Source: a virus
Taxonomy: Duplodnaviria > Heunggongvirae > Uroviricota > Caudoviricetes
Length of the DNA stretch: 64,000 bases
Direction: 5' to 3' (one strand)
IMG/VR virus record: IMGVR_UViG_2718218136_000001
The notes under the pieces were generated by a model, which worked only from the letters and a program-made list of their open reading frames with translations, was not told the DNA's origin and ran no database searches. Positions 22,428 through 23,977 of this stretch are shown here, in pieces. Numbering within the stretch: the stretch's first letter is position 1; each line of letters opens with the position of its first letter. A program made the translations under genes and the position numbers.

Positions 22428-23092
22428 ATTAGTGTAATATCGTCTCAATGAATCGTGATTTATAGAGCGATTTAGCTGTTAGCCGCGACAGGCGCGGCGG
22501 TAAGCATGGCTGGGCCTAGTCCTCCCAGACAAACCACCGAGTTGCCAGGTTGACCATGCGCCTAAGTGGCAACGCCGAAGTGCGTTACGAGCTTCCAGTT
22601 TGCCCATCTTCGGGTGGGCGTTTTTTTCAGGGTTTTCGTCATGGTTAGCGACTTTGCGGCGGTTTAGAAACTGACCATTAAAGTAAATGCAAACGATGAT
22701 CTGATGATGGTAGCGGCCTAAGAAGCCAGACGCCACGGGGTATGAGTCGTCCCCCGTCAAAAAATCGACCGCAGAGTGTCCCCGTCTGTGTATTAGGGAA
22801 CGGGGAGGCACAACAGGTAAGGGCGCTGGTGTGATTAACCAGATGAACGAGAAGGGGCCATCTGTTGGTCAGCGTCCTTTCCTGTTGCGTCTTCTTTTCA
22901 GCGTAACAGCGGTGCTTAACAGCACTGTGGGTACAGTTCCACGAATTTACGGGTATATCCCGTCATGCTGAAAGCGCTAATCACGCTGGAAGCCAGGGTT
23001 ATGCATCCCCTGTTACCGAATTGCAGCCAGGGCGCGGTGCGCCGAAAAGCATACGGAGGTGGAAGCCCTCGCCGGAGACGTACCCGGCAAGT

Positions 23093-23168
23093 GATGGTGT
23101 AGCTCAGCGGTTAGAGCGGTTGACTGTTAATCAACGGGTCGATGGTTCAAATCCATCCACCATCGCCA
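23093..23168 (+). tRNA. tRNA-Asn (GTT), CCA encoded
   Basis: Hand-folded cloverleaf: acceptor GATGGTG/CACCATC, D-arm GCTCAGCGGTTAGAGC, anticodon loop CTGTTAA, T-arm GATGGTTCAAATCCATC. Confidence 0.85.
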
Positions 23169-23170
23169 AT

Positions 23171-23246
23171 GCTGGTTTAGCTCAGTTGGTAGAGCGCCTG
23201 CCTTGTAAGCAGGATGTCAGCGGTTCGAGTCCGTTAACCGGCACCA
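23171..23246 (+). tRNA. tRNA-Thr (TGT), CCA encoded
   Basis: Acceptor GCTGGTT/AACCGGC, D-arm GCTCAGTTGGTAGAGC, anticodon loop CTTGTAA, T-arm AGCGGTTCGAGTCCGTT. Confidence 0.85.
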
Positions 23247-23977
23247 GCACAACAGGTAAGGGTATTTTGCGACGTCGGAGATCGCCGAGCTTGGCAGAGG
23301 GTTCGAATCCCTACGAAGTGCCCTTACCGTTGTGATGAAGTGCAGCTCTTTGAAGCAACCAGAAGATAAGCATCTGGCTTCACAACATAAACCGCAGGAA
23401 CGACCAATAAACGGTAGTCCGTATGGAGAACACCCCGTTGAGGAAGAGGCCTGGCCGGAACCGTAACCGGCACTACAACGTTGAGAACACTGGCGTAACG
23501 GGGTCATATCCCAATCTACGAATAAATGTTGCGTTGCAGCGTGACAACCAGTGTTCTCAACATTGTGGTGAATGCACAGGCTGATGTGCCGCAACTACAG
23601 TAGTGCGCGCTTTGCGGGGCTTGCTATAACCCTGTGTCGGAGTTCAGCACCGATCATCACAGTTTGATTCTCTGGCATGAGCATAACGCTGAAATAAGTC
23701 CAGTCTGGTGCGGCCCGATCACCCGCCGTTAGCTCCACGAAACGGAGCACGTAACAGGTAAGAGCATTCTCCTGTAACGGGTTCATATCCCAATCTACAG
23801 GTCCACCAGGAATGCTCTTTCCGTTGCGGTGAATGCGGCTAAGCGCACGCGGAACAGTTAAAACAATCCTCCTTAATGGTTAAACATTCCGGCGTTAATT
23901 GTTAACTGGTTAACGTCACCGGGAGGCACTCGGCACCGCAATCTAATAAATATGTCACTTTTATTGAGGGATAACCA

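Follow-up and report, generated by a model that had tools for sequence, protein, structure and literature searches.

The window, that is, the whole 64,000-nt stretch of DNA that was analysed, matches phage P1 and its relatives at 93–99% identity throughout the region considered here (BLAST). The annotation of the P1 reference, NC_005856, places this region in the ban operon, which is under C1 control, as its untranslated leader. Elements follow one another along the operon in the order Pban/Oban, a dicF-like region, a repeat unit that we call U1, tRNA-Asn, tRNA-Thr, three further units (U2, U3 and U4), tciABC, tRNA-Ile2 and ban. NC_005856 lists dmt, the operator Oban, the promoters P1/P2ban, the 'dicF-like region', trnA (Asn) and trnT (Thr) in the upstream part, and tciA, tciB, tciC, trnI and ban in the downstream part, with plp and upl annotated on the minus strand. 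U1 and U2 bracket a genuine tRNA-Asn/tRNA-Thr pair, and the three true tRNAs of the operon score 64.7–74.5 bits with the Rfam tRNA model. The features are as follows.

22809–22889, + strand: U1, hairpin CACAACAGGTAAGGGCGCTGG...CAGCGTCCTTTCCTGTTGCG, upstream of the tRNA pair
23093–23168, + strand: tRNA-Asn(GTT), called by ARAGORN; Rfam tRNA model, 74.5 bits
23171–23246, + strand: tRNA-Thr(TGT), called by ARAGORN; Rfam tRNA model, 71.8 bits
23248–23334, + strand: U2, closing stem of 21–23 bp, starting 2 nt after the CCA of tRNA-Thr
23335–23343, + strand: tail of U2, ATGAAGTGC, the RTGAAKGC tail of the family
23471–23570, + strand: U3, CACTACAACGTTGAGAACACTGG...CCAGTGTTCTCAACATTGTGGTG, stem of 22 pairs; inverted repeat I1
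23571–23589, + strand: tail of U3, AATGCACAGGCTGATGTGC, forming a small hairpin, GCAC...GTGC
23750–23828, + strand: U4, CGTAACAGGTAAGAGCATTC...GAATGCTCTTTCCGTTGCG; repeats D1, D2 and I6
23825–23940, + strand: structured tciA leader, STnc100-like, starting at the U4 tail GGTGAATGC
23978: start of tciA
24687–24762: tRNA-Ile2(CAT), called by ARAGORN and by Rfam

Each unit consists of a closing stem of ∼20 bp, CACAAC(A)GGTAAGRG...CTYTTWCCGTTGYG, which encloses a variable interior. The stems comprise 19–23 pairs with at most 2 defects, and the overall identity among the four units in an alignment is only 59%. The initial annotation had described three related units flanking the tRNA pair, and the repeats it reported were borne out by repeat families, motif counts and the folding of all units. 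The units number four, however, because the inverted pair that it had listed separately, around 23475–23570, is itself a member of the family: the two arms (23 nt at 23471–23493 and 23548–23570, 91% complementary) form the closing stem of U3. The long closing stems that it had pointed out are the feature common to all units, rather than the T-loop. Among the shared tracts, GCACAACAGGTAAGGG occurs at 22808 and 23247 (16 of 16 positions identical) and AACAGGTAAGAGC at 23753 (repeat families D1 and D5), and CCGTTGYGRTGAAKKGC occurs at 23327 and 23821. The additional blocks reported at 23505 and 23785 are present as a 25-nt element, GTAACGGGKTCATATCCCAATCTAC, found at 23495 and 23774 with 96% identity (family D2); the interiors of U3 and U4 share this 25-nt GGGTTCATATCCCAATCTAC block.

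T-loop-like cores had been ascribed to all three units first described, and are present in three of the four. The 64 kb contain three 13-mers of the GGGTTCRWWTCCC type (23299, 23500 and 23779), compared to 0.44 expected, and all three lie inside units, namely U2, U3 and U4; U1 has no such core. The same division applies to the related segment said to follow each unit: U2, U3 and U4 share the short tail RTGAAKGC, and no GTGAATGC-type tail was found at U1. U1, whose helix can be extended to 22802–22897, belongs to families D1/D5 and has orthologues in P1, P7 and Ro157c2YLVW. Inside U2 there are a small hairpin (TCGG/CCGA) and, at 23298–23312, a perfect T-arm, AGGGTTCGAATCCCT. Upstream of U3 stands AACCGGCAC, left over from the 3′ end of tRNA-Thr, and the U3 interior contains CGTAACGGGGTCATATCCCAATCTACG and a second hairpin. 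The U3-type tail reads GCGC...GCGC in the P1 isolate OP279344, versus GCAC...GTGC here, a compensatory change.

To assess structure, we folded each unit as RNA and compared it with shuffled sequences. For every unit, none of 200 shuffles was as stable as the original. The folding energies are –48.8 kcal/mol for U1 (folded as 22800–22905; z = –5.43), –42.7 kcal/mol for U2 (z = –5.07), –49.6 kcal/mol for U3 (z = –6.19) and –37.2 kcal/mol for U4 (z = –3.89). The spacers between the units fold no better than shuffles (z = +0.3 to +0.8).

The initial annotation had held that the units are not canonical tRNAs and had proposed covariance-model searches as a check. Its view was confirmed: ARAGORN calls only tRNA-Asn, tRNA-Thr and tRNA-Ile2(CAT), and the Rfam tRNA model gives no match to any unit at E ≤ 10. 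A permissive Rfam search of the region (E ≤ 10) likewise returned no tRNA, tmRNA or Y-RNA match on the units. With the region searched permissively and 10 related loci searched at gathering thresholds, the only matches on units were to mir-465 (26 bits) and mir-142 (27.6 bits), weak microRNA-type matches that arise because the units are long hairpins. We therefore rejected a tRNA or tRNA pseudogene, with its cloverleaf, 7-bp acceptor and D, anticodon and T arms, as there is no ARAGORN or Rfam call and the sole resemblance is an isolated T-arm in U2. Judging from its perfect T-arm, the U2 interior alone among the units looks tRNA-derived. 'tRNA-like' fails as a description of the family, because homologous units keep the stem and carry unrelated interiors without a T-loop.

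We also considered a YrlA or bacterial Y RNA, for which the criteria are a match to RF02553, the motif GNCGAAN0-1G close to the 5′ end, and an rsr gene (Ro60) no more than ∼4 kb away (PMC4201824). U2 alone has the general look of such an RNA, with a long stem and a T-arm module; the units differ in having no D-arm, and the T-arm is not a family feature. The match to the YrlA model (21.3 bits versus a gathering score of 69) lies solely over true tRNAs, the motif is absent from U1–U4, and no rsr gene was found among the neighbours examined (dmt, tciABC and ban). This candidate was rejected.

We then extended the analysis to other genomes. The search pattern fixed only 12–13 nt at the start and 12 nt at the end of a unit. 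Pattern and pairing scripts were used in preference to a covariance model derived from mini-hairpins (with GAAA linking the arms), whose window is too short for units of 80–100 nt. In IMG/VR, the pattern matched at least 120 contigs. Among the matches listed there were 72 distinct sequences, 52 of which form at least 7 of 8 pairs in the distal stem, a part that the pattern leaves unconstrained. As a control, the same pattern was run on 596 Gb of genomes; among the matches listed, most were due to chance, with pairing centred on 2–3 of 8, and true members numbered about ten (Escherichia, Rahnella, Pantoea, Erwinia, Ewingella and Mixta). These pairing and scan results indicate that the family is real and, as far as sampled, confined to the Enterobacterales and their phages. 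No Rfam entry for the hairpin family and, in a literature search, no paper describing it were found.

Around unrelated interiors, the same stem is found again in P7, D6 and other P1-like phages, in SSU5-like phage-plasmids, in Stx and lambdoid prophages, in Rac and Qin, and in lambda. The commonest member (77 nt) belongs to lambdoid prophages and is flanked there by the Q gene, with pR′ and tR′, on one side and by the holin gene on the other; most family members have no tRNA nearby. A member is found upstream of kilR in the Rac prophage of K-12 (1,418,480–1,418,564) and another between ydfC and dicF in Qin, while none was found in DLP12 of MG1655. Directly after tRNA-Thr, P7 and Ro157c2YLVW have the same arms, CACAACAGGTAAGGGCATTC...GAGTGCTCTTACCGTTGTG, around a wholly different interior, and the P1 isolate OP279344 has both interior versions in tandem. 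Three or four hairpins of this kind occur in each of the non-coding tRNA regions (1.6 kb) of SSU5-like phage-plasmids from Escherichia and Klebsiella, whose loci include an annotated site-specific integrase ∼1 kb downstream of the array. The arms of these hairpins differ by paired changes (GTTGAGGCCA / TGGCCTCAAC, GATAAGATCA / TGATCTTACC and GTTGAGCGGT / ACCGCTCAAC, for example), with the base CACAAC/GTTGTG unchanged. In P7, Ro157c2YLVW, SSU5-like plasmids and lambda, the homologous stem encloses interiors without a T-loop. Motifs of the T-loop type do not extend beyond the P1 and SSU5 lineages, and the T-loop-like cores are interior sequence particular to a lineage.

The hallmark of the family is thus a stem of ∼20 bp with a conserved base, often a bulged A, conserved G·U pairs, a freely variable apex and often a GUGAAUGC tail, and the hairpin that directly follows tR′ in the late leader of lambda serves as its type member. 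U1–U4 all have a stem of at least 17 bp on the conserved base CACAAC/GUUGUG (CGUAAC/GUUGCG and UACAAC/AUUGUG were accepted as base variants). A further criterion is location in the untranslated leader of a phage operon, on the strand that is transcribed and beside another structured RNA such as a terminator or a tRNA; U1–U4 sit in the ban leader between Oban and tciA, with U2 starting 2 nt after the CCA of tRNA-Thr. They are unannotated members of this phage leader-hairpin family and ordinary in kind, and we are confident in describing them as + strand RNA hairpins of the lambda-late-leader type.

To evaluate covariation, we compiled 61 distinct stems of 17 pairs each, with bulges removed and the interior replaced by GAAA. 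Pairs were taken from the helix alignment, as a MAFFT alignment of the arms put bulged and unbulged stems out of register. Overall, 96.6% of cells are paired, a percentage inflated by the selection of the set for pairing and its fitting to the helix. Changes occur on both sides in 14 of the 17 pairs, and cells with a double change number 181, compared to 38 ± 6 in shuffles, with none of 500 shuffles reaching the observed value. Sliding the partners by 1–3 columns lowers pairing to 32–53%. Compensatory changes of this kind are not produced by selection for pairing. The first six pairs of the stem are almost invariant in sequence, and pair 17 is most often U·G. The initial annotation had named an alternative to conserved structure, namely that the ends of known P1 genes might explain the similarity. 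The stem covaries, and the two annotated genes here, plp and upl, do not explain it.

The case for these genes is that NC_005856 annotates both plp (a putative lipoprotein) and upl across U2–U4 and that the ORFs are open in the window on the minus strand, at 23217–23594 and 23595–23786. Neither ORF matches any Pfam family, plp overlaps the tRNA-Thr gene, and the boundaries and lengths of the ORFs vary among close relatives: an inserted unit splits the ORF in OP279344, and replaced sequence does so in P7 and Ro157c2YLVW. Newer annotations omit both genes, and U1 as well as the lambda and SSU5-like members lie outside any such ORF. It is therefore extremely improbable that the similarity among the units reflects minus-strand protein genes. 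Instead, plp and upl are probably annotation artefacts antisense to structured RNA.

The tRNA-sense strand folds better than its complement in 51 of 59 distinct tRNA-linked units, with a mean difference of –4.95 kcal/mol. This asymmetry arises because G·U pairs of the stem, which U2 for example has on the + strand, become A·C on the other strand. The structure hence acts in RNA, or at least on the + strand. These data bear on the idea that the units work as DNA, in the form of inverted repeats of the attC or MITE type or of patches of homology, through which lambdoid, P1-like and SSU5-like phages exchange tRNA genes and morons. In line with that idea, the tRNA content between units varies (Asn-Thr, Asn-Tyr-Thr, Arg-Thr and Arg-Tyr-Thr, Ser being present or absent), certain units resemble hybrids (U4 of P7, for instance, encloses a sequence found downstream of the unit in lambda), and the AAC...GTT ends resemble integron core sites. 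However, folding favours the transcribed strand, no target-site duplications occur at the flanks, GCACAAC has 1 mismatch to RYYYAAC and GTTGTGA has 2 to GTTRRRY, and no integron-type integrase is found among the genes flanking the P1 or lambda units. An integron attC site was rejected on these imperfect cores, the lack of an integrase flanking the P1 units and the better folding of the transcribed strand; a MITE was rejected because interiors are unrelated between copies and flanking duplications are lacking. On balance, an exchange element at the level of DNA seems very unlikely, though the similarity of the arms may still give rise to incidental recombination there.

In 40 of 40 cases of tRNA-Thr, a unit starts no more than 3 nt from the CCA end, and the same spacing was seen in 13 of 24 cases for tRNA-Ser(TGA) and in 9 cases for tRNA-Asn. 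The tRNA capped in this way is the last of its cluster. In Stx-type phages (loci L019 and L099), the unit precedes the tRNA genes.

A stem of ∼20 bp of double-stranded RNA is a classical substrate of RNase III, and U1–U4 have the corresponding geometry, with about two helical turns of mostly Watson–Crick dsRNA. Daniels, Subbarao, Blattner and Lozeron (1988, Virology 167:568) reportedly described RNase III sites in the lambda late (pR′) transcript. In lambda, the family member occupies 44789–44862, immediately 3′ of tR′, and the U-tract of this terminator lies 8 nt before the start of the hairpin. The arms of the lambda member, GCACAACAGGTAAGAGCATTG...CAGTGCTCTTTCCGTTGTG, are the same as those in U4 and U2, with U4 identical to lambda across AACAGGTAAGAGCATT and TGCTCTTTCCGTTG, and MFE folding gives the lambda hairpin and U4 a common layout: 7 bp, a bulged A, 2 bp, a U·U mismatch and 10 bp. 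With ∼19 paired positions (7+2+10) before the first internal loop in the MFE fold, the lambda stem is the longest in the late leader. The best other helices in a helix scan of this leader have 15–16 bp; the rule of the scan itself rejects 44789–44862, owing to the 2-bp step between bulge and mismatch. The 1988 sites probably lie in this hairpin, as it is the longest helix of the leader, and the lambda family member very probably corresponds to a processing site known since then. The 1988 report on RNase III in the lambda late transcript is reference 49 of PMC7547250.

Data for the Rac member point in the same direction. A putative RNase III site in K-12 at 1,418,510, labelled 'kilR-sieB', had 0 and 0 reads in the wild type compared to 41 in an rnc deletion, and is one of hundreds of low-count, unvalidated candidates (PMC5371410 Table S1). 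This putative rnc-dependent site falls inside the Rac hairpin. The Qin member could not have appeared separately in that table, because it is <400 bp from the known dicF site. The 3′ arm of the Rac hairpin is also the starting point of the sRNA KilS (1,418,405–1,418,502), for which its authors consider an independent promoter possible.

Collectively, these data favour the view that U1–U4 are leader hairpins of the lambda-late-leader family that are cut by RNase III, thereby separating tRNAs from messages. We put the probability of this reading at roughly 55%. The initial annotation had left open whether the units are pseudogenes, processing signals or small RNAs; of these, processing signals are the best supported, and the units are most likely ordinary processing signals rather than odd tRNAs. 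The long untranslated ban leader, with the four hairpins in it, would be transcribed from the + strand, and RNase III of the host would cut the stems. A cut in U2 would separate the tRNA cluster from the downstream RNA. Since U2 starts 2 nt after the CCA, the few base pairs left by this cut would melt, and exonucleases could then trim the short 3′ trailer of tRNA-Thr back to the CCA. Cuts in U3 and U4 would segment the leader further, detaching pieces ahead of the tciA–ban message. One point that RNase III alone leaves unexplained is the conservation of CACAAC/GUUGUG, the bulged A and the G·U pairs, because the enzyme needs little sequence specificity. Another protein or factor may read the stem, or the conservation of the arms may reflect their recent spread by recombination.

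Alternatively, the hairpins might not be cut at all, and instead act as passive stabilisers or insulators that block 3′ exonucleases, shield 5′ ends from RNase E and bar loading of Rho on the 1.5-kb leader. Leaders in P1 and in SSU5-like plasmids are indeed very long and untranslated (about 1.6 kb), the stems are extremely stable, and each unit is immediately preceded by another structure, be it a terminator, a tRNA or a small hairpin. Yet a hairpin 0–3 nt after the CCA would block exonucleolytic maturation of the tRNA 3′ end unless it were cut. Moreover, a passive structure has no need of a conserved base sequence, bulge and wobble pairs, and RNase III sites have been reported in the lambda late transcript. 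We consider this possibility unlikely, although it is the foremost of the alternatives to cleavage by RNase III.

The interiors of the units raise a further possibility, that the stems are a portable scaffold which presents small-RNA cargo at the apex and releases it upon processing of the stem. Examples of such cargo would be base-pairing sRNAs or, in the case of U2, a T-arm tRNA mimic that draws off tRNA-binding enzymes or anticodon nucleases in the manner of a decoy or sponge. The many unrelated interiors carried on the same arms fit this idea, as do the perfect T-arm in U2, the T-loop-like block common to U3 and U4, the start of KilS at the 3′ arm of the Rac member, and the recurrence of an interior module, GAATCGGCGATAC...CGTAAATCGATAG, beneath a different stem in one related locus (L010). 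Conversely, the interiors are not conserved across the family, as expected of an unconstrained loop, none matches any Rfam family, and T-loop motifs are restricted to two lineages, P1 and SSU5. That the arms form an 'excision scaffold', from which RNase III releases swappable apical small RNAs (T-arm tRNA mimics from U2, U3 and U4, and sRNAs such as KilS), is in our view improbable. If true, it would constitute a bacterial analogue of pri-miRNA hairpins, possibly directed against tRNA-targeting defences.

Several known systems resemble the arrangement in P1. One is the RNase III processing site (or sites) of the lambda late transcript: the lambda hairpin, which probably corresponds to it, has the same arms in an untranslated operon leader right after another structured RNA; lambda has one copy after the tR′ terminator, whereas P1 has four, bracketing or following tRNA genes in an early C1-repressed operon. 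In T7, the RNase III signals of the early region (R0.3, R0.5, R1.1 and others) are long hairpins placed repeatedly along a polycistronic transcript, and some of them contain internal loops. They are alike in being a repeated family of long hairpins between genes of a phage transcript, and differ in that there is no sequence similarity, they separate mRNAs rather than tRNAs, and their upper stems are conserved, in contrast to the hypervariable interiors here. In rRNA operons, with their processing stalks and spacer tRNAs, RNase III cuts long stems to release embedded stable RNAs, after which other nucleases trim (PMC5371410 Table S1). The rRNA stalks arise from distant segments that pair on either side of the stable RNA, whereas hairpins of the P1 type are local and lie beside the tRNA. 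Finally, the chromosomal tyrT-rtT repeats of E. coli (RF00391), which are released by processing, are also downstream of a tRNA gene and contain remnants of a tRNA 3′ end, comparable to the AACCGGCAC that precedes U3; they differ in sequence and structure, and no rtT match was found on the units with Rfam.

The structured tciA leader that begins at the U4 tail (23825–23940) is a neighbour of the hairpin family, not a member. With Rfam STnc100 (RF02076) it scores 43 bits, below the gathering score of 47 (E = 3.5e-7; model positions 31–147 of 206), and BLAST (hits to Rac-SA53 and Stx phages) shows that the kilR leader of Rac-type prophages has it too. The hairpins are also found upstream of kilR in Rac, near dicF in Qin and in the late leader of lambda. 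The ban leader of P1 is thus a mosaic, assembled from modules of lambdoid leaders: the dicF-like region, the hairpins and the STnc100-like kilR/tciA leader. CRISPRi of trnT, plp, upl, tciA–C, trnI and ban indicates that all are non-essential in the laboratory, and any role of the region is therefore accessory.

These findings explain a 1.1-kb stretch of a classic phage that had lacked annotation. One conserved RNA element links the P1 ban leader with the late leader of lambda and the tRNA regions of Stx phages, as well as with two prophage leaders (kilR in Rac and dicF in Qin) and the arrays of tRNA genes in SSU5-like phage-plasmids. The family reveals no new kind of mechanism. If the units are indeed cleaved by RNase III, the element would show how phages free tRNAs and messages from long untranslated leaders, and it would provide a ready-made modular processing signal for engineering.

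The leader of the ban operon, the neighbouring dmt gene and the related loci hold several features beside the RNA hairpin units U1–U4:

Window 19133-22420, + strand: dmt gene, with an insert at about 19361-20383
Window 22535-22625, + strand: annotated "dicF-like region", with a strong intrinsic-terminator-like hairpin, GCCCATCTTCGGGTGGGCGTTTTTTT, at its end
Window 22689-22721, + strand: tmRNA-tag-like reading frame, a short distance upstream of U1
L008 about 676-711 and L010 about 697-729 (SSU5-like plasmids): tmRNA-tag-like reading frames
Window 22828-22842 (U1 interior, GGTGTGATTAACCAG) and 23906-23920 (STnc100-like tciA leader, CTGGTTAACGTCACC): complementary segments
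L004 (phage Ro157c2YLVW) 2145-2305: insertion of ~160 nt
Window 23660-23747 (+ strand), and L003 2788-2874, L005 2107-2193 and L008 1927-2013 (P7, D6 and SSU5-like plasmids): slot just 5' to the U4-type unit
Window 23825-23940, + strand: structured leader 5' of tciA, matching Rfam STnc100 just under threshold
L136 (E. coli K-12 Rac region) 906-1065 = NC_000913.3 1,418,405-1,418,564, minus strand: KilS and the Rac hairpin member

The terminator-like hairpin GCCCATCTTCGGGTGGGCGTTTTTTT is located within the ban leader, and transcription from Pban must pass it before reaching the tRNAs and ban. Between this hairpin and U1, the window contains the frame GCA AAC GAT GAT CTG ATG ATG GTA GCG GCC TAA, encoding ANDDLMMVAA followed by a stop. 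The ssrA tag of E. coli is ANDENYALAA. At the same place, the SSU5-like plasmids encode ANEEVYLAVA (with two stops) and ANDNQYLAVA (with one), followed by pseudoknot-like hairpins. Rfam searches of the window gave weak matches to two-piece tmRNA models, confined to the tag region (tmRNA_permuted, 24 bits; beta_tmRNA, 14 bits), and positions 217-304 of beta_tmRNA were matched weakly in L008 (14.4 bits). ARAGORN called no tmRNA, and no tRNA-like acceptor domain was seen. The frame could be a remnant or else a tmRNA mimic encoded by the phage.

In P7, D6 and the SSU5-like plasmids, the U4-type unit is closely preceded by an 87-nt "tRNA-Ser(TGA)" predicted by ARAGORN, with its anticodon at an unusual position (33) and a score under the gathering threshold of the Rfam tRNA model. 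The window carries an unrelated 88-nt segment in this slot, the folding of which is not significant. In Ro157c2YLVW, the insertion includes an ORF of 42 aa, labelled hypothetical protein in the annotation, and precisely separates the remnant of the tRNA-Thr 3' end (AACCGGC) from the U3 hairpin; this junction has the look of an insertion hot spot. This phage shares with the window the length of dmt, the product of which is 1095 aa in the window versus 754 aa in the P1 reference. The dmt insert is an intein of ~341 aa (Pfam Hint_2 and LAGLIDADG_3), which interrupts the PCQ motif of the C5-methyltransferase precisely at its catalytic Cys (GGTP|CFTAG...VVHN|CQAFS).

In E. coli K-12, the sRNA KilS has its 5' end at the 3' arm of the hairpin member in Rac, and an intrinsic terminator marks its 3' end. 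At 1,418,510, 8 nt upstream of the KilS 5' end, lies a putative RNase III site, and KilS may be a processing product.

The U1 interior, GGTGTGATTAACCAG, shows 80% complementarity to CTGGTTAACGTCACC in the tciA leader, which may reflect either chance or long-range pairing. The tciA leader itself scores 43 bits against STnc100 (threshold, 47) and is 80–85% identical to the leader that precedes kilR in Rac-type and Stx prophages. P1 and the lambdoid phages thus have a cell-division-inhibitor leader module in common.
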